Shown: piece after piece, positions 1 through 46,334 of the stretch
Numbering within the stretch: position 1 is the stretch's first letter
Layout: every line of letters begins with the position of its first letter
Origin: Halobacteriales archaeon
GTDB lineage: Archaea; Halobacteriota; Halobacteria; Halobacteriales; Hikarchaeaceae
Assembly (NCBI GenBank): GCA_042219105.1
Contig: JBDGQL010000093.1
Coordinates: forward strand, 1-48,150
Length of the DNA stretch: 48,150 nt
Direction of reading: 5' to 3'
Program-made: the position numbers and the translations under genes
Notes under the pieces: model-generated
What the model saw: the letters and a program-made list of their open reading frames with translations, nothing else
Database searches by the model: none
Told to the model about the DNA's origin: nothing

Positions 1-57
1 CGCGCGCGGATCACTTCTGGAGTCGATTAAGGACGAGAACGGGGCATCCGGATGATC

Positions 58-136
58 TACTGTCGGACAGAGACATTGATAATCGAACCCCCGGGACGGG
101 GCGCCTTCGAATTATCAATACTTCTGTCCGACAGTA
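58..136 (+). mobile_element. MITE-A copy, 79 bp, flanked by TC/TC
   Basis: The termini TACTGTCGGACAGA ... TCTGTCCGACAGTA form a terminal inverted repeat, and the inner arms (CATTGATAATCGAA / TTCGAATTATCAATA) also pair. TC at 56-57 is repeated at 137-138. The same element recurs at 13987, 18704, 19819 and 29653. Confidence 0.85.
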
Positions 137-188
137 TCCCACATAATAGTTAGCCGAGTGGTGTTTTTCGCGGGCCACTCGCCCAGGG

Positions 189-195
189 TATTATA
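189..195 (+). promoter_or_regulatory. TATA-like box for the sulfatase gene at 221
   Basis: TATTATA is centred about 29 nt upstream of ATG 221. The same spacing is seen at more than 15 genes in this window. Confidence 0.4.
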
Positions 196-220
196 CCATC
201 GTGTATTCAATCGAAGCGTG

Positions 221-1732
221 ATGTCGCGAGGAGACGATATTGAGCGCCCGAACGTCCTGTACGTGATGGCCGACGACCACGCTGCGAACGCGATAGGCGC
301 GTACGGCTCACATCTCACGGAGGTCGCACCGACCGAGAACATCGATCGACTGGCTCATGAGGGGGCTCGGCTCGACAACTGCACGTGTACAAACTCGATT
401 TGCACGCCCAGCAGGGCGTCGATTCTCACCGGTCAGCACAGCCATACCAACGGGGTGAGGACGCTGGCCGACGAGATGGATCCCGATCGGAGGCATCTCG
501 CACACCACCTCCAGGATGCGGGCTACCGGACGGGGATCGTCGGGAAATGGCATTTAGAAACCGAGCCACAGGGGTTCGATTACTACAACGTTCTCCCGGG
601 ACAGGGGCGGTACGACGACCCGCTACTGAAACGACGAGGCGAGCCGTGGGATGGTGATGGACAGGTTTACGACGGTTACTCCGCGGACGTGATCACAGAT
701 CAGGCGCTGGGCTGGCTGGAGGGCACAGTGGGTGGAGGAGCCGGGCACGGGGACGACCCCTTCTTTTTGCAGTGTCATTTCAAGGCACCGCACAGAGCAT
801 GGAAGTACCCACACCGCCACGCGGACCTGTTCGAGGGGAGGCGGATCCCCGAACCGGCTAGCCTCTTCGAGGACAAGTCACACCGGTCAAAAGCGGGGCG
901 CGAACACGGATCCAGGATCTCCTCGAAAAACCCCGTACAGCCGATGGTCGAAGAGGTGAAGGCGGGCGACCTGGGACGCGAGGGAGGCATCGACACGACT
1001 GGCATGGACGAGAAAACCCGCACCCGGGCGGCGTATCAGCGCTATCTATCGGACTACCTGCGCACGATAGCGGGCATCGACGATAACGTGGGGCGACTGC
1101 TCGACTACCTCGATGACGCCGGACTCGCCGAGGACACGCTCGTGATCTACACCTCCGATCAGGGGATGTTCCTCGGCGAGCACGATCAGTATGACAAACG
1201 GTGGATGTACGAGGAGTCCCATCGGATGCCGTTCATCGCACGGTATCCGGAGGAGATCCCGGCTGACACGTTCGTCGATGATCTCGTGGCGAACGTGGAT
1301 TTCGCACCCACGATCCTCGACTATGCCGGCGTTGACGTTCCCGACCGGATGCAGGGCCGGAGCGTCCGCGGGAGTCTCGCCGGCGACCCGTCTGCCGATT
1401 CGAGGGAGGCGGTGTACTACCGCTACTGGATGCATCGGGCACACCACGACGTGCCTGCACACTACGGGCTTCGTACCGACCGGTACAAGCTGATTTTCTT
1501 CTACGGACTACCGTTGGATGCGACCAACGCAGGTGATGACCCCTCTCCCCCCGGATGGGAGCTGTACGATCTGGAGCGTGATCCACACGAACTGAACAAC
1601 GTGTATGACGACCCCGCCTACGCCGACGTTCGCGAGGAGTTGAAACGCCGGCTCACCGAGCGCAAGCGAGCCCTCGGCGACGAGGACGATGGGTACCCGG
1701 AACTGGTCGAGTTGAAAGAAAAACACTGGTGA
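221..1732 (+). CDS. Type I sulfatase (Cys-type), no signal peptide
   Basis: ORF 158..1732; the internal ATG at 221 (MSRGDDIERPNVLYVMADDH) has the TATA spacing. It has the DDH metal-site motif, the formylglycine motif CTPSRASILTG (C-x-P-x-R) and GKWHL. Confidence 0.9.
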   Translation: MSRGDDIERPNVLYVMADDHAANAIGAYGSHLTEVAPTENIDRLAHEGARLDNCTCTNSICTPSRASILTGQHSHTNGVRTLADEMDPDRRHLAHHLQDAGYRTGIVGKWHLETEPQGFDYYNVLPGQGRYDDPLLKRRGEPWDGDGQVYDGYSADVITDQALGWLEGTVGGGAGHGDDPFFLQCHFKAPHRAWKYPHRHADLFEGRRIPEPASLFEDKSHRSKAGREHGSRISSKNPVQPMVEEVKAGDLGREGGIDTTGMDEKTRTRAAYQRYLSDYLRTIAGIDDNVGRLLDYLDDAGLAEDTLVIYTSDQGMFLGEHDQYDKRWMYEESHRMPFIARYPEEIPADTFVDDLVANVDFAPTILDYAGVDVPDRMQGRSVRGSLAGDPSADSREAVYYRYWMHRAHHDVPAHYGLRTDRYKLIFFYGLPLDATNAGDDPSPPGWELYDLERDPHELNNVYDDPAYADVREELKRRLTERKRALGDEDDGYPELVELKEKHW

Positions 1733-1800
1733 GGCCGTATCCACGATCCGGTGGCTTCGAAGAAGGCCATTGCGAAGGGAGCATCGACCGGGTCTTTTTA

Positions 1801-1878
1801 TACGGGTCGACAGAACTATTGATAGAATTCGCCACCCCGGGATGACGAATATCTCCATCGAGTCACAGCCGACAGTAT
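1801..1878 (+). mobile_element. Chimeric MITE with a B-type left arm and a C-type right arm, 78 bp, flanked by TA/TA
   Basis: The left end TACGGGTCGACAGAACTATTGATAGAATTCGCC matches MITE-B. The right end CGAATATCTCCATCGAGTCACAGCCGACAGTAT matches MITE-C. The join lies in the shared GAATTCGCC..CCGG core. Confidence 0.75.
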
Positions 1879-1883
1879 TAATT
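1876..1883 (+). promoter_or_regulatory. TATA-like box for the CoA-transferase gene, formed at the MITE end and its TA flank
   Basis: TATTAATT is centred about 27 nt upstream of ATG 1906. Bases 1876-1878 belong to the chimeric MITE and 1879-1880 are its flanking TA. Confidence 0.4.
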
Positions 1884-1905
1884 GATGCGGGTGCGAGCCG
1901 TGGCT

Positions 1906-3120
1906 ATGGAACAGGCGCTATCAGGTGTAACAGTTGCAGACTTCTCCCAGATGATGCAGGGCCCCTGGGCGACACAGAAACTGGCAGAGATGGGAGCAGA
2001 CGTGATCAAGATCGAACGCATCGGCGGCGAGTGGGAGCGAACCCTGGCTCCGGGTGGTGAACTCCAGGAGGGCGTCAGCCCTTTTTTCCTGGCGATGAAT
2101 CGTAACAAACGTAGCATCACTCTTGATCTCAAGGAACCCGAGGGGCACTCTATCGCCCTTGACATCGCCTCGGAAGCCGATATTCTGTTCGAGAACTTCA
2201 GACCTGGCGTCATGGATCGGCTAGATCTGGGCTACGACGACGTCACCGAAGTCAACCCTAATATCGTTTACGTCTCTGGGTACGGGTTCGGGAGTGACGG
2301 TCCATACGTCGACCGACCGGGCCAGGACCTCCTGTTGCAGGCGATGAGCGGCCTAACAAAAACGACGGGCCGGAAGAACGATCCGCCGACGCCGGCGGGG
2401 TCCGCAGTCGTCGACGAGCACTCGAGTATGCTTCTGGTGTTCGCTACGATGGTCGCGCTCTTTCATAAGGAACGTACGGGAGAGGGCCAACACGTCGAGG
2501 GGAATCTCTTCAGTGCCGCAATCGACTTCCAGTGCCAGGAGATCACTGCCGAGCTATCGTTGGAAAAGGAGTTCGAACGGAGTGACGCCGGGATCGCGAG
2601 CCCGTACAACGAACCTCCCTACGGTATCTACGAGACTGCCGATGGACACATCGCCATCGCCATGGCGGAAATTCTGACGTTGACAGACATCCTCGACATC
2701 AATCCGTCCACGTTGCCCCCGTTCGACGCCCCGGCGGAGTCGTTCGAGAACCGAGACGAGATCAAACGGATAATCGAGGAACACACGCGGGAGCAACCCA
2801 CTGAAAAGTTGTTAAACGACCTGCTGGCCGAGGACGTCTGGACCGCGGAGGTGAACGATTTCGAGGATCTCGTGGACGACCCGCAGGTGGAGCACAACGA
2901 GATGCTCGTCGAAATGGACCACGAGGAGTACGGCTCCTTCACGACCACGGGAATTCCGGTTTCGCTGTCGGAGACGCCCGGCGAAATCTCCTCGACGCCT
3001 CCAGTACCGGGAGAGCACACTCACGAGATTCTCACCGACCTCGGATACGACGAGGAGATGATCCAGTCCGCCATCGAAGGCGGGATCACGACGTCGCCAC
3101 ACTCCGATAGTTCGGACTGA
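1906..3120 (+). CDS. Family III CoA-transferase (CaiB/BaiF type)
   Basis: ORF 1882..3120 starts at TTG; ATG 1906 (MEQALSGVTVADF) is preferred. Motifs: GPWATQKLAEMGADVIKIE, NRNKRS, ENFRPGV, GYGFGSDGPY..GQDLLLQAMSG. Confidence 0.88.
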   Translation: MEQALSGVTVADFSQMMQGPWATQKLAEMGADVIKIERIGGEWERTLAPGGELQEGVSPFFLAMNRNKRSITLDLKEPEGHSIALDIASEADILFENFRPGVMDRLDLGYDDVTEVNPNIVYVSGYGFGSDGPYVDRPGQDLLLQAMSGLTKTTGRKNDPPTPAGSAVVDEHSSMLLVFATMVALFHKERTGEGQHVEGNLFSAAIDFQCQEITAELSLEKEFERSDAGIASPYNEPPYGIYETADGHIAIAMAEILTLTDILDINPSTLPPFDAPAESFENRDEIKRIIEEHTREQPTEKLLNDLLAEDVWTAEVNDFEDLVDDPQVEHNEMLVEMDHEEYGSFTTTGIPVSLSETPGEISSTPPVPGEHTHEILTDLGYDEEMIQSAIEGGITTSPHSDSSD

Positions 3121-3257
3121 CACACTACTCGGCTCTGCACGACGCGCCCGGCGGAAACTCTCGCCGGAAAGACCATTTCCTGCATGCCCTCTCGAAACAC
3201 GTCGTCCAGCGGTGTGTCGAGGAAGGTGTCGAGACGATGGCCGTTATCGATGTCGGG

Positions 3258-5222
3258 TTACGCCGGATCGATCCGAACCCGTGCCTCGCGGAAGCGCCGG
3301 AGGGTTCGGTCGTCCCACTGCAGACTGACGGGGACGACGTGGATCCCGGCCTCGGCATTCGCGGGCACGCCCAAGATGAGTTCGATCGATCCGTTCTCGC
3401 CGGGAGCGACTGACGAGGACGGCCATCGTCTGTCGATTTTCCGGACCCCTTCTCTCTCGTGATACGGGTCGACAGAACTGTTGATAGAATTAGCCTCCAC
3501 CGTACCCGGCGAATATCTATCAGGACTTCTGTCGACCCGTAGATTCCATGTCCAGCCCGGCGGTAACTCCGGGCGGGCCGCAAACTCCCGATTCCGGTCC
3601 GCGTAGTTCGTGACACAGACGTCTATCTGTGCGTTCTCGCCCGGTGCGCGCGTCTGGTCGTACGGGACGCACCGCGCCCAGTGGGGATCGAGCCCGAAGT
3701 CGGGGTGCTCCCAGGCAAGGAGCTCGCCGAACAGTTCCTCCCGCTCGCGCAGGTTCTTCCGCATGAAGATCATCTGGTCGTCAGTGAACGTGAAGGGATC
3801 TTCGACGTGACAGTTGAACACGTGCGTCGGATCGAGGTCCTCCACTGTGTCGAGACACTGCCGGTATCCCCGGTTGGCGCCGACGGGGTTCCGGTTGTGG
3901 GCACAGTAGTCATCCATCCCGCTCGGCGTGAACGCGTCCCCCGCAAAGAGGAGCCGCCGGCCACGCCCTTCGGCGAGCAGGGCGGCGTGGTACCGTGTCT
4001 GTCCCGGGAGCCAGTGCGCCGAGAGCGTCCATTCGTGCCAGTTCCACTCCTCGCCGTCCGTGAAGACGCGGTCCACGTCGATCCGATCCGGGATCTGACA
4101 GGGCAGACGGTACACCTCGGGCGCCTCTATGACGTCGGCGACATGGCGCTCCGCCAGGATCGGGGCGTCGAATGACTCTTGGAACTCTGGGACGGCCCCG
4201 ACGTGATCGTGGTGGTAGTGCGTGAGCCAGAGTGCGGATATCTCCCGCGCCTCGCCTTCGGTTATCCACGACCGGAGGCGGTCAAGAACGTCGACCCACC
4301 CACAATCCATGGCGAGGGCGTGACCGTCGGCAGAGAGCAAGGCCCAGGTGGTGCCGACGTGCTTCACTTCCGGCGGGCAGGGCGTCGGGTCTCTGACGGG
4401 CATCGTGTCCTCGGCGAACGGGCTGTCGAACATCTCGGGACCGTAGTGTCTGAGAGCTGACGTGCGCACGTAGGCCCGGTACGCCGCTTCGATCAGTTGG
4501 CTCACCGAATCCACGACTTCGGACGGTCGGTGGATCGGATCCCCACGAGCAGGGACTATTACGTCAGCGTCCGAGATCCGTGCCAGACTACCGAGATACC
4601 GCTTTCGGTCCCCGAGGAAACCGTGGTAGTCGTTCCAGTCGCCGTGATATCGCTGCAAACTGTAGGCGTCCCACAGCGCCCCTGTCCCGTGGAGTAGGTC
4701 GCCGGAGAAGATGTACCGTGCATCCGATCCATCGCGCGCCTGTGCCAAGTCGAACGCATACGAGACGCTGTTCTCGGTGTGTCCTGGCGTGGGGAGAACT
4801 TCGAACCGCAGGTCGCCGAGGACGACGTCTTCGGCCGGTTCGACGATCTCGTCGACCGGAATCGGGCGCGCCGGGAGCAAGGGATGCGGGCGGAAGTCCG
4901 TCAGGTGCCACCGAAACTCCGGGTCGACCCAGAACTCCGCCACCGACTCGAAATACTCGCGCTCTGCGGCGGGGACGACGATGTCGATGCCTCGTCGGGC
5001 GAGAGAGCGCGCACCACCCGCCGTGTCCCGGTGGTAGTGTGTAAAAAGGGCCGCCTTGATATCGAATCTTCGGCTCTCCTCAAGCTCGTCGACGATGGAC
5101 GCGTCGTCGCAGTCGATTAGGACGGCCTCGCCGCCTTCGTGAACGACGCTCACGTTCGTCGAGGACCGGTAGAGACCGACGCCTTCGTCGAGACGGTGCC
5201 ATCCCGTGATCGCCCGGCTCAT
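3258..5222 (-). CDS. Tandem metallo-beta-lactamase-fold hydrolase carrying an in-frame MITE insertion
   Basis: 654-aa ORF with two MBL repeats. The N-terminal repeat has the degenerate motif THYHRDT and the second has the canonical THYHHDHVG (HxHxDH). The residues LRVDRSPDRYSPGTVEANSINSSVDPY near the C-terminus are encoded by MITE-B (3463-3541) plus one flank. Confidence 0.8.
   Translation of the reverse strand: MSRAITGWHRLDEGVGLYRSSTNVSVVHEGGEAVLIDCDDASIVDELEESRRFDIKAALFTHYHRDTAGGARSLARRGIDIVVPAAEREYFESVAEFWVDPEFRWHLTDFRPHPLLPARPIPVDEIVEPAEDVVLGDLRFEVLPTPGHTENSVSYAFDLAQARDGSDARYIFSGDLLHGTGALWDAYSLQRYHGDWNDYHGFLGDRKRYLGSLARISDADVIVPARGDPIHRPSEVVDSVSQLIEAAYRAYVRTSALRHYGPEMFDSPFAEDTMPVRDPTPCPPEVKHVGTTWALLSADGHALAMDCGWVDVLDRLRSWITEGEAREISALWLTHYHHDHVGAVPEFQESFDAPILAERHVADVIEAPEVYRLPCQIPDRIDVDRVFTDGEEWNWHEWTLSAHWLPGQTRYHAALLAEGRGRRLLFAGDAFTPSGMDDYCAHNRNPVGANRGYRQCLDTVEDLDPTHVFNCHVEDPFTFTDDQMIFMRKNLREREELFGELLAWEHPDFGLDPHWARCVPYDQTRAPGENAQIDVCVTNYADRNREFAARPELPPGWTWNLRVDRSPDRYSPGTVEANSINSSVDPYHEREGVRKIDRRWPSSSVAPGENGSIELILGVPANAEAGIHVVPVSLQWDDRTLRRFREARVRIDPA
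3463..3541 (+). mobile_element. MITE-B copy, 79 bp, flanked by GA/GA, inside a CDS
   Basis: TACGGGTCGACAGAACTGTTGATAGAATTAGCCTCCACCGTACCCGGCGAATATCTATCAGGACTTCTGTCGACCCGTA. GA at 3461-3462 is repeated at 3542-3543. The coordinates are anchored on the codons of ORF 3258..5222. Confidence 0.9.
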
Positions 5223-5456
5223 TAGCCCTATCTCGCGCAGCCTTGATCAAGAAACTCCCGGTCGATCTCCTATATTTCGCACCCCTCTACCACGGACGAT
5301 CAATTTCTCCTCTGGCGGTTAGTCTGGAATTGGAGGAACCGCATTTACGGGTCGAGGGAAGTCCTGATAGTGCCATTTTCGCCGTGACCTTTCAGCTGCA
5401 TTCATAATCAACTGCTCAGGATCACACTTCGCCTGGAAGTGCGACGATTCAACAAC

Positions 5457-5462
5457 ATTTAT
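5457..5462 (+). promoter_or_regulatory. TATA-like box for the crotonase gene
   Basis: ATTTAT is centred about 27 nt upstream of ATG 5487. Confidence 0.35.
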
Positions 5463-5486
5463 CATCACCTCAGGACACGTCCACCC

Positions 5487-6263
5487 ATGAGTGATACCGT
5501 ACAGTCTGACGTCACGGGGCGGGTAGCGGAAGTCACGATCGACCGGCCGGACAAACTGAACGCGCTCACTACGGAGACGAACACGGCGCTCCGGGAGCGC
5601 TTCGAGGCACTGGAACACCGGGACATCGACGTCGTAATCCTGAAATCGGCCGGCGACAGGGCCTTCGTCGCCGGGGCCGACATCAACGAGATATCGGACC
5701 TGACGACCCGGGAGTTCATCGATTTTCAGAGGAACGGACGGGAGACCAACGACACCATCGCCTCCCATCCGGCGATAGTGATCGCGGCTGTGAACGGGAT
5801 CGCGTTCGGCGGCGGGTTCGAACTCGCCCTCGCAAGCGACATGATCGTCGCCGGTGAGGGTGCGTCGTTCGCGACGCCGGAGGTACAAATCGGGCTGGTT
5901 CCGGGCGGAGGAGCCACACAACGGCTCCCGGAGGTCGTCGGGCCGAACAAGGCGAAGGAACTGTTGACGACGGGCGACCCGATCACGGCGGCGGAAGGCG
6001 AAGACCTGGGCCTGGTCAACCGCGTCGTCGACGACGACTCGGTTGAGGAGGAAGCTCGTGACCTGGCGGGCGATATCGTCGGCAACGCACCACTGGCCAT
6101 CCGCGAGGCAAAAACACTCGTTGACGAGGGACAAAACATGCCGCTTCCGGAGGGACTCTCCTACGAACAGAGCGTGACGTTCACGCTGTTCGAGAGCGAC
6201 GACGTCACCGAAGGCATCGCATCGTTCGTCGAGGATCGCGATCCGGAGTTCGCCGGACAGTAA
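5487..6263 (+). CDS. Enoyl-CoA hydratase/isomerase (crotonase) family
   Basis: ORF 5439..6263; ATG 5487 (MSDTVQSDVTGRVAEVTIDRPDKLNALT). Motifs: FVAGADI, NGIAFGGGFELALASD. Confidence 0.88.
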   Translation: MSDTVQSDVTGRVAEVTIDRPDKLNALTTETNTALRERFEALEHRDIDVVILKSAGDRAFVAGADINEISDLTTREFIDFQRNGRETNDTIASHPAIVIAAVNGIAFGGGFELALASDMIVAGEGASFATPEVQIGLVPGGGATQRLPEVVGPNKAKELLTTGDPITAAEGEDLGLVNRVVDDDSVEEEARDLAGDIVGNAPLAIREAKTLVDEGQNMPLPEGLSYEQSVTFTLFESDDVTEGIASFVEDRDPEFAGQ

Positions 6264-6286
6264 CGGACATGCCGAGTCCTACACTA

Positions 6287-6475
6287 TACACTCGGACACG
6301 AATAGTTCAACACGCAGGTCGATTATACGGGTCGACAGAAGCCGTGATAGATATTCGCCGGTACGGCAGAGGCGAATTCTATCAACAGTTCTGTCGACCC
6401 GTATATTCCCGGTCAAAACGATGTCTCCCGGTCGATCAGGGGACGATCACGTTGACTGGTTCGTGTCCGGGTGTA
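6287..6475 (-). mobile_element. MITE-D copy carrying a nested MITE-B
   Basis: The termini are TACACTCGGACACGAA ... TTCGTGTCCGGGTGTA. It is the reverse complement of the uninterrupted copy at 8159..8267, apart from the 78-bp element plus TA at 6326-6405. TA is present on both outer flanks (6285-6286, 6476-6477). Confidence 0.85.
6326..6403 (-). mobile_element. MITE-B copy (78 bp) nested in MITE-D, TA target duplication
   Basis: The filled site reads GGTCGAT-TA-[TACGGG...CCCGTA]-TA-TTCCCGG. The empty site in the other D copy (reverse complement of 8221-8240) reads GGTCGAT-TA-TTCCCGG. Confidence 0.9.
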
Positions 6476-6479
6476 TAGA

Positions 6480-8012
6480 TCACGTCGACTCGAGAAGGTC
6501 GGCGTACTGCTCGGCGAGTTGATCCGCGTGGTGTGCGCGGTCGGTGTCGCGCAACCGCTGTAGATACCGCTCGAGCTTTGGAACGTTCTGCGTGGTGTGA
6601 AACGGCCCACCCTCGTTGATGACGGTCCAGAGAGGATCACGCAGTCCGGTCGGTGGGTCTGGATTGCCACCCCGACGGTCCTCGGACGATTCGGCCATCC
6701 GGTCGGCGTGCCAGGCTTCGAGGCGGCGAATGCCCTCCGCAGTGACGCCCGGCCGTTCGTCCGACAGGTCCCTCGTCTGGTGTGGATCGGCGACGAGGTC
6801 GTACAGAGCCACTTCCGGGACGTCCTTGACCCCGTCGTGGTACGTCCTGAGTAACAGCCAGTCGCCCCAGCGGACTCCGCGTTGGCACGTGAGAGCGGCC
6901 TGGCTGAGCACGAGGGTCTCGCGTCCCGCCGAATCCCCGTCAGCGAGCGACGGCTCGAACGACTGGCCGTCCCACCGGTCGGGGGCTGTCGCTCCGATGC
7001 GTTCGACCATCGTTGGAGCGAGGTCGAGGTGATAGTGCAAGTCCCCGTCCACGCCAGGCGTCACGTCCGGACCGTGGACGATCAGCGGGATACGGCCCGT
7101 GGGATAATCGGCCGTGTGGTGGTCGCCGTAGATGTTCAGTTCACCCTGGTTCTCGCCGTGGTCGGCGGAGACGATGACCAGGGTGTCCTCGAAGACCCCC
7201 TTCTCACGGAGGACGTCGAGCACGTATCCGATGTGTTCGTCCATGTATCGTACCCCGACGTCGTAGGCGTCGATCCACTCGACGAAATCCCCCCTGGAGC
7301 CGATTTCCGCGGGTGTCCGTGGGAGTTCCGCGTCCTCACCCCAATCCAGAGCCACCTCCGGCGTTTTACCGACGCCGTGGAGATCCTGAGCGCTGTGTGG
7401 CCCGTAGCTGCGATACTGCTCGTAGATAGTCTCCTCGTCCGGAAACGACGGTGCAGTGCCGGCGTCGAACGGCGTTCCGTACTCCACCGGCGTGTCGTAG
7501 GGTGTGTGTGCGTCCCAGAAGTTGACGTGCAAAAACCAGTCCTCATCCGTTGCGTGGGTTTGCAGCCAGTCGATGGCCGGGTCGCACACCTCTTCAGCGA
7601 GTTCGAACCCACCCTTGCCGGTGTCGCGCCACTCCCGAAACCCATCGAGCACGTGCCACGCGCCGTGACGAGTCGGGAACGGGCTGATCGAGGCCGTGTA
7701 GTGTCCGGCATCACGGAGGACGGCCGTAAGCGTCTCAAAGCCCGGGGCACCCGCGAATCCGCGACGATCTCCGATCGGTCGTGGTTCCGATGCGAGACCG
7801 CCGTGGTTCACGACGCCCGTATGAATGCCGAACCGGCCAGTGAACAGTGCTGTCCGTGACGGTAAACAGGGAAGATCCGAGGCATAGACGTTCGTGAACC
7901 GACGACCGTCGGCAGCGAGTCCGTCGATCGTCGGTGATGTCTCCCGGTCGTACCCATAGCAGCCGAGATGATCCGCACGAAGCGAATCGCAGTCTACGTA
8001 CAGGATGCGCAT
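6480..8012 (-). CDS. Sulfatase (alkaline-phosphatase superfamily, Cys-type), no signal peptide
   Basis: ORF 6480..8036; the second ATG at 8012 (MRILYVDCDSLRADHLGCYG) lies 27 nt from an AT-rich box. The formylglycine motif is CLPSRTALFTG. It is a paralog of 33323..34870. Confidence 0.85.
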   Translation of the reverse strand: MRILYVDCDSLRADHLGCYGYDRETSPTIDGLAADGRRFTNVYASDLPCLPSRTALFTGRFGIHTGVVNHGGLASEPRPIGDRRGFAGAPGFETLTAVLRDAGHYTASISPFPTRHGAWHVLDGFREWRDTGKGGFELAEEVCDPAIDWLQTHATDEDWFLHVNFWDAHTPYDTPVEYGTPFDAGTAPSFPDEETIYEQYRSYGPHSAQDLHGVGKTPEVALDWGEDAELPRTPAEIGSRGDFVEWIDAYDVGVRYMDEHIGYVLDVLREKGVFEDTLVIVSADHGENQGELNIYGDHHTADYPTGRIPLIVHGPDVTPGVDGDLHYHLDLAPTMVERIGATAPDRWDGQSFEPSLADGDSAGRETLVLSQAALTCQRGVRWGDWLLLRTYHDGVKDVPEVALYDLVADPHQTRDLSDERPGVTAEGIRRLEAWHADRMAESSEDRRGGNPDPPTGLRDPLWTVINEGGPFHTTQNVPKLERYLQRLRDTDRAHHADQLAEQYADLLEST

Positions 8013-8034
8013 ACGCCGTTCATCGCCAAGAAAC

Positions 8035-8043
8035 ATAATAATT
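8035..8043 (-). promoter_or_regulatory. TATA-like box for the sulfatase gene at 8012
   Basis: Plus-strand ATAATAATT (minus-strand AATTATTAT) is centred about 27 nt upstream of ATG 8012. Confidence 0.4.
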
Positions 8044-8079
8044 CTACTGGGGCCCCGAACCCCGCTTCATACTGATTTA

Positions 8080-8158
8080 TACTGTCGGCTGTAAGTTCGT
8101 GGAGGAATTCGCCACCCCGGGGTGTCGAATATCTCCATCGAGTCACAGCCGACAGTAT
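8080..8158 (+). mobile_element. MITE-C copy, 79 bp, flanked by TA/TA
   Basis: TACTGTCGGCTGTAAGTTCGTGGAGGAATTCGCCACCCCGGGGTGTCGAATATCTCCATCGAGTCACAGCCGACAGTAT. TA is at 8078-8079 and 8159-8160. Further copies are at 20079 and 31409. Confidence 0.85.
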
Positions 8159-8267
8159 TACACCCGGACACGAACCAGTCAACGTGATCGTCCCCTGATC
8201 GACCGGGGGACATCGTTTTGACCGGGAATAATCGACCTGCGTGTTGAACTATTCGTGTTCGGGTGTA
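8159..8267 (+). mobile_element. MITE-D copy, uninterrupted (about 105 bp plus terminal TA)
   Basis: TACACCCGGACACGAACCAGTCAACGTGAT ... TTCGTGTTCGGGTGTA. It is directly abutted by MITE-C on the left and MITE-B on the right. Confidence 0.85.
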
Positions 8268-8346
8268 TACGGGTCGACAGAAGTCCTGATAGATGTTCGC
8301 CGGGTACGGTGGAGGCTAATTCTATCAACAGTTCTGTCGACCTGTA
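8268..8346 (-). mobile_element. MITE-B copy, 79 bp
   Basis: TACGGGTCGACAGAAGTCCTGATAGATGTTCGCC...GTTCTGTCGACCTGTA. TA lies on both sides (8266-8267, 8347-8348). Confidence 0.88.
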
Positions 8347-8399
8347 TATTGTTCTCACTGTCGGGACGGCCTGCAACCGTCTCTCGTCCCAAGGAAAGG

Positions 8400-8407
8400 T
8401 ATATTTT
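8400..8407 (+). promoter_or_regulatory. TATA-like box for the SDR gene
   Basis: TATATTTT is centred about 26 nt upstream of ATG 8429. Confidence 0.4.
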
Positions 8408-8428
8408 CCAGGGGAGAATCCTCCCCGT

Positions 8429-9214
8429 ATGCAAGCGAATCGTCACGACGGTCGGGTAGTGGTCGTGACTGGCGCATCGAGCGGTATCGGTCGCGCAACG
8501 GCGATCCGATTCGGTCAGGAGGGCGCAAACGTCGTGTGTGCTTCCCGCAACAACGAACCCCACCAGGGCAAACACCACGAAACGGACGTCACCCGGCCCA
8601 CGGAGGAGGTCGTCCGGGATGACACCGCGGGGGACGCGCGTTTCGTGTCCGTCGACGTCACCGATCCGGCCCGCTGTGAGTCACTCCTCGACCGGACGGA
8701 AGCGATTTACGGTCCCGTGGAGGTCCTGATCAACAACGCCGGAATCTACATTCCGGGAGACAGCCAGGAGACGGACATCGACGACTGGGAGAAACAGATC
8801 GGCGTCGACCTCGACGGCGCGTTCCACTGTGCGAAGCACGCCGTCCCCGACCTGAAGGACACGAGCGGCCACCTCGTCAACATCGCCTCGGTCAACGCAA
8901 CGGAAGGTGGCTCCGGCCCTGCATACGCCGCCGCCAACGCGGGACTGGTCAATCTCACCCGCGACCTTGCCGTCGAACTCGGTGAACACGACGTGAACGT
9001 CAACTGTATCTCACCCGGTTACGTGAAAACGCCGATGCAGGACTACCAGGACGAACAGAGCATCCAGGAGAGCCGCGAACACACGCTGTTACCCCGCCTG
9101 GGCGAGTCCGAAGACATCGCCGACGTCGCCGTGTTCCTTGCCAGCGACGAAGCTAGCTTCGTCCACGGTGCCGACGTTCTGGTCGACGGTGGCTGGACCG
9201 CCCACAGGGTGTGA
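8429..9214 (+). CDS. Short-chain dehydrogenase/reductase with an atypical YxxxN active-site motif
   Basis: ORF 8255..9214 begins inside MITE-B; ATG 8429 (MQANRHDGRVVVVTGASSGIGRA) is preferred. It has TGxxxGIG and NNAG, but YAAANAG where YxxxK is expected. Confidence 0.85.
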   Translation: MQANRHDGRVVVVTGASSGIGRATAIRFGQEGANVVCASRNNEPHQGKHHETDVTRPTEEVVRDDTAGDARFVSVDVTDPARCESLLDRTEAIYGPVEVLINNAGIYIPGDSQETDIDDWEKQIGVDLDGAFHCAKHAVPDLKDTSGHLVNIASVNATEGGSGPAYAAANAGLVNLTRDLAVELGEHDVNVNCISPGYVKTPMQDYQDEQSIQESREHTLLPRLGESEDIADVAVFLASDEASFVHGADVLVDGGWTAHRV

Positions 9215-9277
9215 CGACGGGAACACCGCCACCCCCGTCATGGAACCGCCATTGTACAACGCCTCCAGAGTAGACCG

Positions 9278-10180
9278 TCACAGGCGGGCAGTCGGATATC
9301 GACCCGGCGTGTCGAGGTCGACGGCCGTGAGGTGTGGATGTCCCAGTTGCGCGATGTACAGCGTCCGCATCTCCGGGCCACCGAATGCCACGTTGGTCGG
9401 CCGACAGAGATCCCGGCTGATGGGATCGTGGACGACGAGGTCGACCGTCTCACCCGAGATCCGGTAGATGGCGTCGTGGCTCGTCGATGCGACGTAGATT
9501 CTCTCCTCGGCGTCCAGTGCCACGCCGTCGATGACGCCGAGCGAGTCGGCGACGACGGTCGCCGTAACCACCTCGGTGTCGGATAGCGTGAGCGCCCACA
9601 GTCGTTCCTCGTAGGATTCGACGACGTACAGGGTGTTGCAATCCCGGGAAAACGCCAGCCCGTTGGTCCAGCAGGAGACGCGGTCGGTGAGCGTGTGCCA
9701 CGCTCCGTCCACGTCCCGGTACAGGATACGGCCACCGTACTCCGGGCCGGAGGCGCGACGGTCTCCGGAGTCGGACAGAAACAGCCGTCCGGACGTATCG
9801 AACGCACAGAAGTTCGGCTGGATGGGCGACTCGTCCTCGCTCCCCTGGAGTTCGATCTCGGGCTCGTGTTCTTTCGCTCCGTCGAGTGGCAGTTCAAACA
9901 GCGCGTGGCGCTGGAAATCACACGCGTACAGGGACTGTTCGTCCGGCGACAGGGTGACGCCGAGCGTGGAGCCGTTGGTCGACGCGAGCAACTCCACGTC
10001 CGTCTCGTCGGGCCCGATCCGATACAGTTGGCCGTCTTCGCCGCTGGCGTAGATCGTCCCGTCACGGCCGACGGCCACTCCCTCCGGGTGGTCGAGGTAG
10101 GTTTCGAGGTACGTGGTCGCGCCCACGACCCGGGTGGATTCGATGGGGTGGAGCGCCTCGGATGGATCGATGGCTACCAC
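9278..10180 (-). CDS. SMP-30/gluconolactonase/LRE-like beta-propeller (putative sugar lactonase)
   Basis: 300-aa ORF with a GTG start. Repeats typical of the family: TNGLAFSRDCNTLYVVES, PTNVAFGGPEMRTLYI. Confidence 0.75.
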   Translation of the reverse strand: MVAIDPSEALHPIESTRVVGATTYLETYLDHPEGVAVGRDGTIYASGEDGQLYRIGPDETDVELLASTNGSTLGVTLSPDEQSLYACDFQRHALFELPLDGAKEHEPEIELQGSEDESPIQPNFCAFDTSGRLFLSDSGDRRASGPEYGGRILYRDVDGAWHTLTDRVSCWTNGLAFSRDCNTLYVVESYEERLWALTLSDTEVVTATVVADSLGVIDGVALDAEERIYVASTSHDAIYRISGETVDLVVHDPISRDLCRPTNVAFGGPEMRTLYIAQLGHPHLTAVDLDTPGRYPTARL

Positions 10181-10324
10181 GGTCGTCCCTCCCTGGCTCG
10201 GTCCTGTCGTCGCTGCCAGTCGAGCACCATGGATACAGCGTCGTGTCCATCCATAATAACGATACTGGCTGTGCTGGCTCCCCGCAAAATCACTCCCCGG
10301 AGCATCTCCGAGGTACGTCCCGGA

Positions 10325-11359
10325 TCACCCATCACCGGTTATTCGGGACCCGTCGGCACGCTGCCGGGCGATGTGTGCGGCCATCTCGACGGAGTCGACG
10401 AGGCTCGCCTCCGAGGCGATACCCTCCCCGGCGATGTCGAACGCCGTGCCGTGGTCGACGCTCGTGCGAACGATTGGCAGGCCGACGGTCACGTTAACGC
10501 CGGAGATGGACGCCCCGCCAGAAAAGCCGAGCATCTTGATCGGGATGTGTCCCTGGTCGTGGTACATCGCAACGACGCAGTCGTACGCGCCGCTGGCTGC
10601 CTGGTTGAAAACGGTGTCGGGCGATTCGGGACCATATGCCCGGATCCCCCCGGACCGGGCCTGTTCGACCGCGGGTTCGATCTCCTCTATGTCTTTGGAA
10701 CCCAGCAATCCCCCGTCGCTGGCGTGGGGATTGAGCCCCGCGACGGCGATCTCGGGGTCGTCGATGCCCAGTTCCCGGAGCGCCTCGTCGGTCACCCTGA
10801 CGGTGTCCAGCACCGCGTCCGTCGTCACGAGGTCACACGCCTCCCGGAGGGGGACGTGTGTGCTCACGTGGGTGACGCGGAGGTCACCTTCGACGAGCAT
10901 CATCGAGTAGTTCTCCGTATCCGTGGCGTCGGCGAGCATGTCGGTATGTCCGGCGTAGTCGCTACCGGCCAGTCGCGTCGCCTGCTTGTTGATCGGAGCC
11001 GTCGTCATTCCGTCGACCGCTCCGTCGATGGCCAGTTCGATCGCGCGTTCGACGTACTCGAGACTCGCCCCACCGTACGCTTCACGAACGACCCCGTACT
11101 CGACGCCGTCGACGTTGTCGAGGTCCAACACCGGAATTGCCTCCGGCAGGAACGACGCGTCGGCCGGGTCGTCGACGGTGACGACGTCGAGGCCGCGATC
11201 GCGGACGGCGAGGGCGTCACGCATCACGTCGGCATCACCGACGACGAGGGGGCGTGCGTGCTGTAGCAGACCCGGATACGCGGCCGCGATGACTTCACTG
11301 CCGATGCCGGCAGGGTCGCCCATCGTAACTGCGATACGTGGGTTATCTACTGCGGTCAC
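10325..11359 (-). CDS. PdxA-family NAD-dependent 4-phospho-hydroxyacid dehydrogenase
   Basis: GTG start. Motifs: IAVTMGDPAGIGSEV, GLNPHASDGG, AMYHDQGHIPIK, VRTSVDHGTAFDIAG. The start overlaps the upstream kinase gene by 17 nt. Confidence 0.88.
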   Translation of the reverse strand: MTAVDNPRIAVTMGDPAGIGSEVIAAAYPGLLQHARPLVVGDADVMRDALAVRDRGLDVVTVDDPADASFLPEAIPVLDLDNVDGVEYGVVREAYGGASLEYVERAIELAIDGAVDGMTTAPINKQATRLAGSDYAGHTDMLADATDTENYSMMLVEGDLRVTHVSTHVPLREACDLVTTDAVLDTVRVTDEALRELGIDDPEIAVAGLNPHASDGGLLGSKDIEEIEPAVEQARSGGIRAYGPESPDTVFNQAASGAYDCVVAMYHDQGHIPIKMLGFSGGASISGVNVTVGLPIVRTSVDHGTAFDIAGEGIASEASLVDSVEMAAHIARQRADGSRITGDG

Positions 11360-12656
11360 GGGTGGGCTCTAATTCGGCAGTACAATTAACGATGGCCTTT
11401 GGAGACCCGAACCCGCCGGCTTTCGTCACGACACGAGTGCCCGCGGCTGGACCGTCCGCGATCCACCCCTCCGGAATCCCCTCGGCCACGGCCGCTCCCG
11501 TGAGACACACCGAACCCGTACCGATGGCGTCTAGGGTCGTCCGTGCGACGTCGCCCCCGGTGAGAAAGAGTCCGGCGGGGGAACACGCCTCGAACACGGT
11601 GCTTGCAGCGGTCGCGAGCGCCCGAGCCACGCGCTGGCCGGGATCAGCGCTACACGGCTGGTTGGAATCGGACGTTCCGGGATGGCCATCCACGGAAACG
11701 CCGGATTCGCCTCCGTTTGCGGACCCGTTCGCACGGATGACGTCACTGGGGTCGGTCGCTGCGGTGAGGACGGCATGCCTGCCGGATTCGAGTCGGTCCT
11801 GCAGGGCGGCCGTGAGCGTCCTATCGGTGGATTCCGGGTCCAGCACCGCTCGCCGTGGATCGAGTCGGAAGATGTCGGAATCCGGAACGGCCCCGAGTTG
11901 TTCGAGTGTGCGGTCGTTGACGCTTCCGACGACGGCCAGGACGCCGGTGCCTGCACGGTCGGGGGCAGTCGGCAGGTCAGGCGTGCCGGGAAGCATCACG
12001 CACTTGGCGAGACCGCCACTACCCACGTACAGCACGTCGCTGTCGAGCGACGCTGCCCCCTCGGCAACGTCCCGGAGGTGGTCACCGTCAGTCGCGTCGC
12101 AGGTGATGAGCGTCCTCTCGGTCACCGCAGCGAGTTCCTGCTGGACGGCGTCAGCACCTCGACGGATGACTCGGCAGTCGAGGTGTTCAACCGGATGTCG
12201 AGACGTCCCGAAGTACGCCGGCACGGTCGACTCATCGATACCGTAAGCTGCACTCGCTAGTGGCTCGCCGTCGACGTAGTGGACGCCGTCACGCGTGACG
12301 CGTCCGGTCGCGGGAAATGCCGGCGCTATGATACCGAGGTCACACCCGGAAACGGCGAGCGCAGCGTCGACCTCGGGAACGACGTTCCCCCGGAGCGTCG
12401 AGTCGATTTTCTTGTACACGAGCGACGATTCGGACGACTCGATGACGGTTCGAACGGCACCGGCCGCTAGGTCCGAGTCGACACCCCGGGTGTCGGTGTC
12501 GACTGCAAGAACGTCGCCTGCAGACGGTGGGTCGAACGACCCCGGCTGTGTGGGATCGACGAACTGAGCACGAACGCTCCGGTCACGGGCGGCGAACCCG
12601 TACCCGGCGTCTAGCGTTCCGGTAAGGTCGTCGCCGACGAGTACTGCATTCAACAT
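11343..12656 (-). CDS. Four-carbon acid sugar kinase (DUF1537 family)
   Basis: ORF 11343..12686 starts at TTG; ATG 12656 (MLNAVLVGDDLTGTLDAG) is preferred. Hallmark motifs are DDLTG and KKIDSTLRGN. Confidence 0.82.
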   Translation of the reverse strand: MLNAVLVGDDLTGTLDAGYGFAARDRSVRAQFVDPTQPGSFDPPSAGDVLAVDTDTRGVDSDLAAGAVRTVIESSESSLVYKKIDSTLRGNVVPEVDAALAVSGCDLGIIAPAFPATGRVTRDGVHYVDGEPLASAAYGIDESTVPAYFGTSRHPVEHLDCRVIRRGADAVQQELAAVTERTLITCDATDGDHLRDVAEGAASLDSDVLYVGSGGLAKCVMLPGTPDLPTAPDRAGTGVLAVVGSVNDRTLEQLGAVPDSDIFRLDPRRAVLDPESTDRTLTAALQDRLESGRHAVLTAATDPSDVIRANGSANGGESGVSVDGHPGTSDSNQPCSADPGQRVARALATAASTVFEACSPAGLFLTGGDVARTTLDAIGTGSVCLTGAAVAEGIPEGWIADGPAAGTRVVTKAGGFGSPKAIVNCTAELEPTRDRSR

Positions 12657-13986: not shown

Positions 13987-14065
13987 TACTGTCGGACAGA
14001 GACATTGATAATCGAACCCCCGGGACGGGGGGCCTTCGAATTATCAATACTTCTGTCCGACAGTA
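13987..14065 (+). mobile_element. MITE-A copy, 79 bp, flanked by GA/GA
   Basis: Full element; GA at 13985-13986 is repeated at 14066-14067. It lies between the stop of the LigM-like gene and the start of the Gfo/Idh/MocA gene. Confidence 0.88.
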
Positions 14066-15602: not shown

Positions 15603-15624
15603 TACGAGTCGACAGAACTATTGA
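15603..15624 (+). repeat. Solo MITE-B terminus
   Basis: TACGAGTCGACAGAACTATTGA, preceded by TA, matches the B left arm. No partner arm is present. Confidence 0.55.
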
Positions 15625-17032: not shown

Positions 17033-17114
17033 ATAATGTCTGTTGTAGCTGTTTACCGGTGATCGCCACCCCCGGCGGCGGCGAGCACCGGTAAGAGACT
17101 ACAACAGACATTAT
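17033..17114. mobile_element. MITE-F, 82-bp palindromic element
   Basis: The termini ATAATGTCTGTTGTAG ... CTACAACAGACATTAT are perfect inverted repeats, and the inner arms TTACCGGTGATCGCC / GGCGAGCACCGGTAA pair. If the element is read as 17036..17111, TA flanks both sides. It lies 17 nt downstream of the stop at 17131. Confidence 0.7.
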
Positions 17115-18619: not shown

Positions 18620-18840
18620 CTGTCTACCTCGAAATCCCGGATCTGCCCCTCGAAGCGGGGCCCACACGGCGGGTGCTTTAGATCGGGGTCGACCGTATCA
18701 ATATACTGTCGGACAGAAGTATTGATAATTCGAAGGCCCCCCGTCCTGGGGGTTCGATTACCAATGTCTCTGTCCGACAGTATATGTGCGGTCCCTCGGC
18801 CCGTGAGCCCGATGATAGCGTGTTGTAACACGTCGTCCAT
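18616..18840 (-). CDS. Short upstream ORF (74 aa; 47 aa without the in-frame MITE-A)
   Basis: ATG 18840 lies 28 nt from a TATA-like box. The stop TGA overlaps ATG 18619 of the next gene as ATGA. Residues ILSDRDIGNRTPRTGGLRIINTSVRQY are encoded by the MITE. Confidence 0.35.
   Translation of the reverse strand: MDDVLQHAIIGLTGRGTAHILSDRDIGNRTPRTGGLRIINTSVRQYIDTVDPDLKHPPCGPRFEGQIRDFEVDR
18704..18782 (-). mobile_element. MITE-A copy, 79 bp, TA/TA
   Basis: Full element in reverse orientation. TA is at 18702-18703 and 18783-18784. Confidence 0.88.
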
Positions 18841-18961: not shown

Positions 18962-19040
18962 TACGGGTCGACAGAACTGTTGGTAGAATTAGCCTCCGCC
19001 GTACCCGGCGAATATCTATCAGGACTTCTGTCGACCCGTA
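18962..19040 (+). mobile_element. MITE-B copy, 79 bp, TA/TA
   Basis: Full element; TA is at 18960-18961 and 19041-19042. It lies 7 nt downstream of the amidohydrolase stop codon (19048-19050, minus strand). Confidence 0.88.
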
Positions 19041-19047: not shown

Positions 19048-19995
19048 TCACGAGTGCACCGATTCGAAGGTCCGATAGGAGAGGTACGCGAGATCGCGCG
19101 AGGAGAGGAACTCGACCTCCTCGACCCAGGAGAGACATTCCTCGTAGCTTCCCCACCGGTCCATCCAGGGGTAGTCCGACCCCAGCATCAACCGTTCGGG
19201 CCCGAACCACTCGATCAAGTTGCGAACGTACCCGTGTAGATTGGGGTACGGCCACGGCTCCCCGGCCGAACGCGGGAGCGAACTCACCTTGACGTACGTG
19301 TTATCGTGGTCGGCTAGACGGCGAAACGCCGTCCACGGTTCCGCCTCGGGCGTGGTCGTTTCGTCGGGCCACGCCATGTGATCGACGACGATCGTCACCT
19401 CCGGGTGTTCGGCTGCCAGGTCCGCGACCATGGTGAGTTGGTCGGCCTTCGGGAAGACGAACAGTGCATCGTCGGACTGGGCGAGTTCGTCCCACACCGG
19501 CTCGAGTTCGGGCGAGGTGATCCAGTCCCCGGTCCGGTTTAGCTCGGTGGGGTACTCCTCGTAGGCGAGTGCGGCGTGCATCCGGACTCCGAGCATGCGG
19601 TCGTGACCGGTCACGCGGCGGACGTCTCGCCGAACACGGTCCTCGTCACGGAAAAAATCCAGTAACCCGACCCCGTACAGCCGGTCCGGATGGGCCTCGA
19701 TGCTCCGCATCGTGTACTCGTTGGCCCGTCGACCCCGCCCGTACAACGGCGTCGTCACGACCACGCTCCCGTCGATCCCCAGCCGGTCCATGTCCTCACA
19801 CAGGTCACGGTGGGTGTATACTGTCGGACAGAGACATTGATAATCGAACCCCCGAGACGGGGGGCCTTCGAATTATCAATACTTCGGTCCGACAGTATAG
19901 GGTCCCGTCCACTCGGGCGGGAGCAACTCCGCCTGCCACGGTAGTTCCGTCGTGTTTCTGCCCCACGCGTGGGTGTGTGTGTCGATAAAGCGCAT
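19048..19995 (-). pseudogene. Amidohydrolase-2 family (sugar-lactonase-like) gene split by MITE-A
   Basis: The 5' segment from ATG 19995 encodes MRFIDTHTHAWGRNTTELPWQAELLPPEWTGP. The 3' segment is ORF 19048..19791, in the same frame. Removing 19819-19897 plus one TA joins ...WTGPYTHRDLCEDMDRLGIDGS... As it stands, a TGA inside the MITE stops translation after 39 aa. Confidence 0.8.
19819..19897 (+). mobile_element. MITE-A copy, 79 bp, TA/TA, inside the amidohydrolase gene
   Basis: TA is at 19817-19818 and 19898-19899. The coordinates are anchored on the codons of ORFs 19048..19791 and 19690..19944. Confidence 0.9.
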
Positions 19996-20078: not shown

Positions 20079-20158
20079 ATACTGTCGGCTGTACGTTCGT
20101 GGAGGAATTCGCCACCCCGGGGTGTCGAATATCTCCATCGAGTCACAGCCGACAGTAT
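20079..20158 (+). mobile_element. MITE-C copy, 80 bp, TA/TA
   Basis: Same sequence as 8080..8158 apart from one substitution (A to C, GTAAG to GTACG) and one extra G. TA is at 20077-20078 and 20159-20160. Confidence 0.85.
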
Positions 20159-27737: not shown

Positions 27738-27816
27738 TACGGGTCGACAGAACTGTTGATAGAATTAGCCTCCACCGTACCCGGCGAATATCTATCAGGA
27801 CTTCTGTCGACCCGTA
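27738..27816 (+). mobile_element. MITE-B copy, 79 bp, TA/TA, inserted in a stop codon
   Basis: TA is at 27736-27737 and 27817-27818. The pre-insertion sequence reconstructs to ...GAC GTG CGG TAA on the minus strand. Confidence 0.9.
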
Positions 27817-29575: not shown

Positions 29576-29703
29576 GGTACCGTGTGGGTCAATCACGTGT
29601 CCGGTACTTAACTCTGGCGTGAGTCGTCAGTGGTCACGCCGGAAAGCAGGTATACTGTCGGACAGAGACATTGGTAATCGAACCCCCAGGACGGGGGGCC
29701 TTC

Positions 29704-31203: not shown

Positions 31204-31408
31204 GGGCCTTCGAATTATCAATACTTCTGTCCGACAGTATAGTAGTTTCCATCTTTCCCAGCGAACTCCGACTCCCTCGGGGAGTCGACGCGCCCGTGTA
31301 TCTGCTCGGCGGTCTGGAACGAACGCAACAGACAACTGGAGTAGATGACCACGATGTTCGGCCGATCGAATGTCTCATTACTGGGCATTCGGACTTTGAT
31401 TTTTCTTA

Positions 31409-31487
31409 TACTGTCGGCTGTAAGTTCGTGGAGGAATTCGCCACCCCGGGGTGGCAGATATCTCCATCGAGTCACAGCCGACAGTAT
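31409..31487 (+). mobile_element. MITE-C copy, 79 bp, TA/TA
   Basis: TA is at 31407-31408 and 31488-31489. It is near-identical to 8080..8158. Confidence 0.85.
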
Positions 31488-38330: not shown

Positions 38331-38355
38331 GGGCCGGTAAAGGAAGATGACCTAC

Positions 38356-38364
38356 TTTAATTTA
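38356..38364 (-). promoter_or_regulatory. TATA-like box in the divergent sulfatase intergenic region
   Basis: TTTAATTTA is centred about 30 nt upstream of ATG 38330 on the minus strand. Confidence 0.4.
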
Positions 38365-38424
38365 CTGGTTCCGGAGGATCAAACGATCACAGAGCACATA
38401 TACACTCGGTCGGACGGTAGAGGT

Positions 38425-40157: not shown

Positions 40158-40236
40158 TACGGGTCGACAGAAGTCCTGATAGATATTCGCCGGGTACGGT
40201 GGAGGCTAATTCTATCAACAGTTCTGTCGACCCGTA
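40158..40236 (-). mobile_element. MITE-B copy, 79 bp
   Basis: It starts 2 nt after the sulfatase stop TGA (40153-40155), with TA at 40156-40157. It abuts MITE-E on the right. Confidence 0.88.
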
Positions 40237-43124: not shown

Positions 43125-43148
43125 CAGGCTACTGGATTAGCCAAACAC

Positions 43149-44696: not shown

Positions 44697-44775
44697 TACG
44701 GGTCGACAGAACTGTTGATAGAATTAGCCCCCACCGTACCCGGCGAATCTCTATCAGGACTTCTGTCGGCCCGTA
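44697..44775 (+). mobile_element. MITE-B copy, 79 bp, first unit of a head-to-tail dimer
   Basis: It begins on the nucleotide after the sulfatase stop TAG (44694-44696). A single TA (44776-44777) separates it from the second unit. Confidence 0.88.
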
Positions 44776-44777
44776 TA

Positions 44778-44856
44778 TACGGGTCGACGGAACTGTTGAT
44801 AGAATTAGCCTCCACCGTACCCGGCGAATATCTATCAGGGCTTCTGTCGACCCGTA
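44778..44856 (+). mobile_element. MITE-B copy, 79 bp, second unit of the dimer
   Basis: It has the same orientation as the first unit and differs from it at a few positions. TA follows at 44857-44858. Confidence 0.88.
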
Positions 44857-46315: not shown

Positions 46316-46334
46316 TTGTGAGTCATTTTCGGAT

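Follow-up and report, generated by a model that had tools for sequence, protein, structure and literature searches.

The host gene and the inserted element

We analysed a stretch of 48,150 nucleotides from a Halobacteriales archaeon (contig JBDGQL010000093.1, positions 1 to 48,150; hereafter the window), in which a short mobile element interrupts a gene without closing its reading frame. The element, MITE-B, is a miniature inverted-repeat transposable element (MITE) of 79 bp, and its host is the open reading frame (ORF) 3258..5222, which codes for a protein with two metallo-beta-lactamase-fold (MBL) domains. The locus comprises the following features, with the evidence for each given in brackets:

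3258..5222, minus strand: host gene, 654 aa, ATG start (ORF list; Pfam; homolog alignment; AlphaFold)
3463..3541, minus strand: MITE-B copy, 79 bp, encoding most of residues 561-587 (repeat identity; absent from the orthologous contig L040)
3463..3488, plus strand: left arm of the terminal inverted repeat, TACGGGTCGACAGAACTGTTGATAGA (pairs with 3516-3541)
3516..3541, minus strand: right arm of the terminal inverted repeat (pairs with 3463-3488)
3461..3462, no strand: left copy of the target-site duplication, GA (flank match; across loci this flank shifts with the right copy)
3542..3543, no strand: right copy of the target-site duplication, GA (the BLAST alignment to the ortholog stops at 3544)
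3261..3461, minus strand: 67 codons 3' of the insert, comprising the native portion of the loop (HEREGVRKIDRRW) and the last four beta-strands (homolog conservation; AlphaFold)

Around residue 560 the host ORF reads ...PELPPGWTWN-LRVDRSPDRYSPGTVEANSINSSVDPY-HEREGVRKIDRRW..., with HEREGVRKIDRRWPSSSV... as the onward residues. Residues 561-587 are 27 extra codons at 3462-3542, made up of MITE-B and one copy of its 2-bp flank, and the insertion point lies between the codons for Asn560 and His. Excision of these 81 nt leaves TGG ACA TGG AAT CAC GAG, with the frame kept. Read in the mRNA sense, the plus-strand flank GA becomes TC. The insertion of MITE-B into the host gene, with a 2-bp duplication and preservation of the frame, is thus confirmed. 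An earlier reading of this DNA, made from its letters alone (the sequence-only reading), had described an in-frame MITE-B adding 27 residues to an MBL-fold gene, with the extra codons consisting of the element and one GA flank; both its coordinates and its reading were correct. Tryptic peptides predicted to span the two junctions of the insert-bearing protein are ...PELPPGWTWNLR and YSPGTVEANSINSSVDPYHER.

In the host protein, two MBL domains precede a C-terminal beta-sandwich (residues ~516-651). Pfam finds PF00753 twice (E 4.3e-27), and Foldseek matches MBL structures at E ~1e-10. The metal-binding motif HxHxDH is present, with H335, H337, D339 and H340 invariant in 90 sequences; the first MBL domain has HYHRD, a sequence that the family conserves. 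The host protein retains every one of the 36 invariant columns of the 90-sequence alignment, and the gene is otherwise intact, with no second lesion in its sequence. A homolog search gave 129 matches at E <= 1e-10; among the best 120 of these, nearly all are 600-760 aa long and share the architecture of the host protein, which can be aligned from end to end with homologs of 606-695 aa. The closest one, P0001, has 84% amino acid identity over aligned columns, and the two proteins agree in their starts (MSRAITGWHRLDEGVGLYRSS in the host, MSRPITGWHRLDDGVGLYRSS in P0001).

An empty site could be found at both the protein and the DNA level. In the protein alignment, the 27-residue segment occurs in none of the 89 homologs, the site reading WTWN-SH-REWSSSSV in P0001, WTWS-RGEGRPGGSDGEGEQRW-VPSSV in P0002 and WEWS-AGGDAGERDGERW-ASTGV in P0003. 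The contig of P0001 (L040, a Joint Genome Institute (JGI) metagenome) has no MITE-B at the orthologous position. BLAST aligns it with the window at 5270-3544 (87.8% nucleotide identity) and at 3425-3263 (85.9%), and the first of these blocks stops at 3544, one base outside the duplication. The C-terminal strands (...VPxxxxxGxxVxPVxxxxxxRxLxxFREA...) continue in 17 of 17 aligned homologs; because of this conservation, the 67 residues downstream of the insert are real protein and their frame is not fortuitous, as the sequence-only reading had judged from their appearance. We also looked for orthologs ending near WTWN and for conservation of the inserted segment in distant taxa, and found neither.

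The surroundings of the host gene are rich in sulfatases, with at least four PF00884 genes, assigned directly or via L040 (158-1732, 6480-8036 and 41626-44696). Past the closest relatives, most homologs with a named source belong to Planctomycetota, Poribacteria, Lentisphaeria and Sumerlaeia. This context and taxonomy hint at a role in the breakdown of sulfated substrates, and the taxonomy possibly reflects gene transfer between domains. When positions 1-12000 were compared with plasmids by megablast, the sole match was one of 77% to a Natronococcus plasmid, over one gene.

MITE-B as a mobile element

With up to 3 mismatches allowed, the 26-nt terminus of MITE-B is found 14 times in the window, against none expected from 100 shuffles, and MITE-B is therefore a true repeat and not a chance similarity. 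Its arms (3463-3488 and 3516-3541) pair at 23 of 26 positions, without a mismatch in the outer 15 bases, and the terminal sequence is TACGGGTCGACAGAA. As RNA, the element would fold into a hairpin of -44.7 kcal/mol. Eight full copies of 78-79 bp are present in the window, starting at 3463, 6326, 8268, 18962, 27738, 40158, 44697 and 44778. Apart from the host-gene copy, they are distributed as follows:

6326..6403, no strand: 78-bp variant (repeat search)
8268..8346, no strand: copy upstream of an SDR gene (repeat search; Pfam)
18962..19040, no strand: MITE-B copy (repeat search)
27738..27816, no strand: intergenic copy with TA duplication, identical to the host-gene copy (sequence comparison)
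40158..40236, no strand: copy identical to the host-gene copy, 2 bp past the TGA stop of ORF 38347-40155
44697..44856, no strand: tandem pair (44697-44775 and 44778-44856; repeat search)

Most of the ~46 copies listed from the window and elsewhere are flanked by TA on both sides. GA/GA flanks were seen at the host-gene copy and at one other (L015, in a Halorientalis metagenome-assembled genome (MAG)), and AA/AA at a single copy (L002). Since the left and right flanks vary in step, they represent a target-site duplication. MITE-B thus has what characterises a MITE: inverted repeats, a target-site duplication, small size and many copies without a transposase gene, and an empty site. A 2-bp, predominantly TA target duplication is a hallmark of the IS630/Tc1-mariner superfamily. 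Most MITE-B copies show a TA duplication like that of the Stowaway-like MITEs derived from this superfamily; GA and AA duplications occur as well, with GA at the host-gene copy itself. As no transposase with matching ends turned up in the window or in 40 loci, we regard the affiliation as a lead only.

A genome scan covering species-representative genomes revealed at least 40 further copies of MITE-B in at least 39 loci of other Halobacteria genomes. Nearly all the loci listed belong to the Haloarcula MAG LUM.49, and a Halorientalis MAG and a Halobacteriales MAG contribute one each. MITE-B matches no Rfam family, and Rfam and ARAGORN detect no RNA family or tRNA in the window. There is no match to MITE-B among plasmid records, and in the papers searched its 12-nt termini match unrelated primer sequences only.

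Over all of its 79 bases the host-gene copy agrees with those at 27738 and 40158, and 2-3 bases separate it from four other full-length copies. Having no differences from two other copies, it is young; it is either among the youngest copies or undiverged from the master sequence. The sequence-only reading had considered a very recent insertion, and this identity bears it out.

Insertion of MITEs into genes is rare. Of the ~20 MITE copies in the window, representing at least 5 families, only the host-gene copy lies within a homology-supported gene, and at most 3 of ~65 copies examined overall are intragenic. In the Haloarcula MAG, most MITE-B copies lie upstream of genes, including those for PAN, MoxR-like proteins and FAD-dependent (flavin adenine dinucleotide) enzymes. 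Long ORFs also run across the copies in L001, L010, L017, L018, L027, L028, L034 and L038 and across the window copy at 27738. We rejected these as in-frame cases because the upstream halves are spurious ORFs of high-GC DNA and the elements lie 5' of real genes. When all four MITE-encoded peptides were compared with 5.8 billion proteins, only 4 short proteins were matched, all from one Halobacteriales MAG.

One of these four is a further, genuine in-frame case. P0121 (ABEH88_08270, Halobacteriales archaeon MAG) is a PPOX-class F420-dependent oxidoreductase (TIGR03618) that carries MITE-B in-frame, in the orientation opposite to that of the host-gene copy (IRVDRTVDRISLHRTRRISIRTSVDPY). The protein as it stands matches profile positions 48-104 (E 3.6e-8), up to the element. 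After removal of the MITE peptide, the match extends over positions 50-126 of 127 (E 7.6e-10) and crosses the junction. The N-terminal 35 residues of P0121 lie outside the family match, and the 5' end of the gene may also be damaged.

A third case, which we treat as tentative, lies at L008 1893-1971 (Haloarcula sp. LUM.49), where MITE-B is read in the same frame as the window copy (IRVDRSPDRYSPGSAEANSINRSVDPY). Here the element is located between a twin-arginine-like signal peptide and what seem to be the propeptide and the start of the catalytic part of a subtilase, and the contig ends within the gene. The part 3' of the element has a weak subtilisin match in PDB (E 4e-5); the putative subtilase has no homologs at E <= 1e-5 and no Pfam match. 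In-frame insertion is thus recurrent but rare, and random insertion with subsequent purifying selection fits this better than an element specialised for genes. Nor does the MITE-B family look specialised for coding regions, given the intergenic position of most copies and the commonness of 80-bp variants.

Reading frame, predicted structure and fate of the host protein

There are two reasons why the host ORF stays open. Firstly, 79 bp of the element and 2 bp of the duplication add up to 81 nt, that is 27 x 3. Secondly, MITE-B is free of stop codons in this orientation and phase. Four of the six frames of MITE-B are stop-free, so that an open frame is not improbable in itself; a 79-bp variant entering a coding region would keep the ORF about two times in three. 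The open frames are no evidence of design, because the inverted repeat correlates the readings of the plus and minus strands. We estimate the chance of finding 2 of 3 effectively independent frames open at ~0.2. Nor is a length that keeps the frame maintained in the family: among 40 copies listed from the Haloarcula MAG, 20 measure 79 bp, 12 measure 80 bp, and 78 bp and 70 bp are represented by 3 copies each. The frame read in the host gene is the most hydrophilic of the open ones, with a grand average of hydropathy (GRAVY) of -0.90 and a net charge of -1 (the alternatives have GRAVY values of +0.11 and +0.34), and the encoded peptide is rich in Ser, Pro, Asp, Asn and Gly.

The host protein was modelled by AlphaFold in two forms. 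The model with the insert (654 aa, 90-sequence alignment) has a mean predicted local distance difference test score (pLDDT) of 91.2 and a predicted template modelling score (pTM) of 0.91; the model without it (627 aa) has values of 93.1 and 0.92. The flanking strands are E558-561 and E602-605 in the former and E558-560 and E575-578 in the latter, and the lists of secondary-structure elements are essentially alike. In the presence of the insert, pLDDT falls below 50 at residues 565-586 and 588-596. The native loop is already poorly ordered when the insert is left out, with an average pLDDT of 54 at residues 561-570. The strands predicted 3' of the insert (602-605, 610-618, 626-636 and 639-651) have a pLDDT of ~95. 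A surface loop as the site of insertion had been suggested from the sequence, and prediction with and without the 27 residues indeed places them between strands 558-561 and 602-605 of the same fold.

The loop is also variable in evolution. The segment between P554 and P620, both near-invariant, spans 27-64 aa in the 89 homologs (median 29), and in the host protein 65 aa with the MITE and 38 aa without it. The insert therefore occupies the stretch of the C-terminal beta-sandwich that best tolerates changes in length, and in sequence it is separate from both MBL domains. Because the target loop was already length-variable, the 27 residues are predicted to bulge out in disordered form, with the MBL domains and the sandwich left intact.

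We suggest that these observations are best explained by a recent insertion of MITE-B into a length-variable loop, which kept the gene open and left a protein that is made and functional, and we consider this explanation likely. MITE-B, a non-autonomous transposon with 26-bp inverted repeats, would have been mobilised recently by a transposase acting in trans, and its insertion produced a 2-bp target duplication, usually TA and in the host gene GA. Entering the gene of a double-MBL-domain hydrolase after Asn560, the element left the ORF open, and the disordered excursion it is predicted to add to the sandwich loop would not affect the domains. We infer that the insert-bearing protein is made and still active. 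The copy would then persist because it is nearly neutral, being among the rare intragenic insertions with effects too mild to be purged, and adaptation to coding regions would play no part.

Several points weigh against this explanation. For expression and activity it rests on sequence and models. The nearest ortholog (P0001/L040) has only ~88% DNA identity and a shorter native loop, and a search of metagenome contigs with a flank fitting both the window and the L040 versions gave no same-species empty site; a protein-guided scan of the same contigs found no relative. No autonomous partner of MITE-B was found in the window and 40 loci, where matching termini 150-3000 bp apart enclose ordinary genes and no transposase. 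Moreover, a copy without substitutions may predate any selection, and its survival need not mean that it is tolerated; the -44.7 kcal/mol hairpin in the mRNA could impair transcription or translation. The hairpin and the youth of the copy together leave room for a different outcome: a real insertion that is not tolerated, with the hairpin or the destabilisation of the C-terminal domain having disabled or impaired the gene too recently for purging or for further lesions to accumulate. Such an outcome would agree with the absence of substitutions relative to two other copies; with four of six frames open, an intact frame is to be expected in any case, and in a cluster with several sulfatase genes an accessory gene may be lost at little cost. 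We nevertheless think it rather unlikely, since the target loop already varies between 27 and 64 residues among homologs, the predicted fold does not change with the insert, the peptide is read in the most hydrophilic open frame, and the host gene bears no other lesion.

It is also imaginable that the family is adapted to coding regions, as an archaeal counterpart of Rickettsia palindromic elements (RPEs), with a length divisible by three after duplication and open frames under selection. The arithmetic of 79+2 = 81 and the four open frames would suit such an adaptation, as would the sister family A, which is also 79 bp long with open frames, and the further in-frame cases in P0121 and, tentatively, in the subtilase of L008. 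If this were true, the 79-bp families A and B would settle repeatedly in genes, donate disordered loops and form a recurrent source of new peptides in Halobacteria. We find it improbable. Intragenic copies make up 1 of ~20 within the window and no more than 3 of ~65 examined, copies of 80, 78 and 70 bp in the Haloarcula MAG do not hold the length, the strand readings are correlated (with the chance of ~0.2 estimated above for the open frames), and the search of 5.8 billion proteins with the MITE peptides returned only the 4 short proteins. Still less credible is an artefact of assembly, in which a repeat-induced misjoin placed a MITE copy in the gene. MITE-B is highly repeated, and the copy is identical to others, which speaks for a misjoin; the 79-bp element is, however, shorter than a sequencing read, the 2-bp duplication is perfect, and the ortholog is collinear with the window on either side of the element. 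A misjoin would not leave a clean duplication between two intact parts of the gene.

Known elements and the MITE landscape of the window

As a type of event, in-frame insertion of MITEs is already known from bacteria, where fusions with host ORFs were called "not unusual" in a 2024 review (PMC10969869). RPEs (Ogata et al. 2000, 2002, cited from that review) measure ~150 bp, and nearly half of their copies in R. conorii are located within ORFs, at sites that are regarded as fold-compatible (PMC10969869). The insertion described here resembles them in that a short palindromic mobile repeat lies in-frame in an unrelated metabolic gene and adds a peptide at a fold-compatible position, in our case a predicted one. 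MITE-B differs in its length of 79 bp, its archaeal host, the rarity of intragenic copies (1 of ~20 in the window) and the commonness of frame-breaking 80-bp variants. No sequence relationship with RPEs is expected, and we liken the two by behaviour alone. Of the traits that mark RPEs, MITE-B would share the fold-compatible site, as far as the models tell, but neither the high fraction of copies in ORFs nor a length held at a multiple of three.

Further bacterial examples include ERIC, Coxiella QMITE1 and Anabaena MITEb/MITEe (PMC10969869, PMC5896051). Open frames and occasional translational fusions are common to these and MITE-B, which differs in host domain and family and for which an empty-site ortholog and a structure model of the loop are at hand.

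Among archaea, the review mentions MITEs of Sulfolobus, Halobacterium and Haloquadratum and gives no in-frame cases (PMC10969869). The MITEHsal elements of H. salinarum and the HqIRS MITEs of Haloquadratum walsbyi share with MITE-B their host class (Halobacteria), non-autonomous nature, inverted repeats, mobilisation in trans and often strain-specific occurrence; they are longer than the 79-bp MITE-B and make duplications of 5-7 bp in place of 2 bp (PMC7002104, PMC3119063). An altered or replaced N-terminus of bop in Halobacterium was caused by the 411-bp insert of MITEHsal2 (PMC7002104), and neither paper describes an internal in-frame insertion with the protein preserved on both sides (PMC7002104, PMC3119063). 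Our literature searches for an archaeal MITE lying in-frame within a gene brought up no report, and the present one is possibly the first documented internal insertion of this kind in archaea.

It provides a clean natural example from archaea of a transposable element that adds protein sequence without destroying the gene. With its empty site, its very recent date and a structural explanation for its position, it is also a suitable case for asking how much a surface loop can absorb, and it extends the process by which selfish DNA becomes coding sequence beyond the bacterial lineages described earlier. For annotation it serves as a warning, because such genes may pass as intact while containing a repeat-derived segment, or may be miscalled as pseudogenes.

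The window as a whole is dense in MITEs. The ~20 copies of at least 5 families are 76-109 bp long, with ends of the TAC...GTA type and 2-bp duplications (TA, GA or TC). Families A and B both measure 79 bp. Further copies are located at:

58-136
8080-8157
8159-8267
13987-14065
17034-17113
18704-18782
19819-19897
20080-20157
31409-31486
40237-40312

Families A, B and C are all absent from the 10 kb of L040. Set against ~20 MITEs in the 48-kb window, this marks the expansion as specific to the lineage of the window. In L040, the MBL gene adjoins two sulfatase genes and a third gene, whose counterparts in the window are found at 41.6-47.9 kb (41626-47868). The MBL gene and these neighbours are thus ~36 kb apart in the window, which implies an insertion or rearrangement, in a MITE-rich region. 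The tandem MITE-B pair at 44697-44856, whose copies share a TA between them, directly follows the TAG stop of ORF 43182-44696. Collinearity with L040 stops exactly at 44696 and restarts at 46389, so that the window has ~1.7 kb of extra sequence, including ORF 44897-46225.

A MITE-A copy (29652-31243) is itself interrupted by a 1.5-kb insertion sequence (~29704-31203) with its own inverted repeats, CCTGTGTCGTTTCGAGTATTTAAAA, and an apparent 8-bp duplication (GGGCCTTC). This insertion sequence encodes a DDE_Tnp_1 transposase of 407 aa (ORF 29756-30979; PF01609, E 1.1e-17). A chimeric element at 1797-1880, between a sulfatase gene and a CoA-transferase gene, joins the left end of MITE-B (TACGGGTCGACAGAACTATTGATAGA) to the right half of family C (…CGAGTCACAGCCGACAGTA). 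Solitary MITE-B-like termini at 5346-5370 and 15603-15624 have no partner arm nearby and are probably remnants of degraded copies.

The MITE at 8268-8346 falls within a spurious 5' extension of the SDR ORF (8255-9214), whose Pfam match begins at residue 67. This copy and the one at 40158-40236 are among several that lie directly at gene boundaries, where such MITEs may replace promoters or act as terminator-like hairpins.

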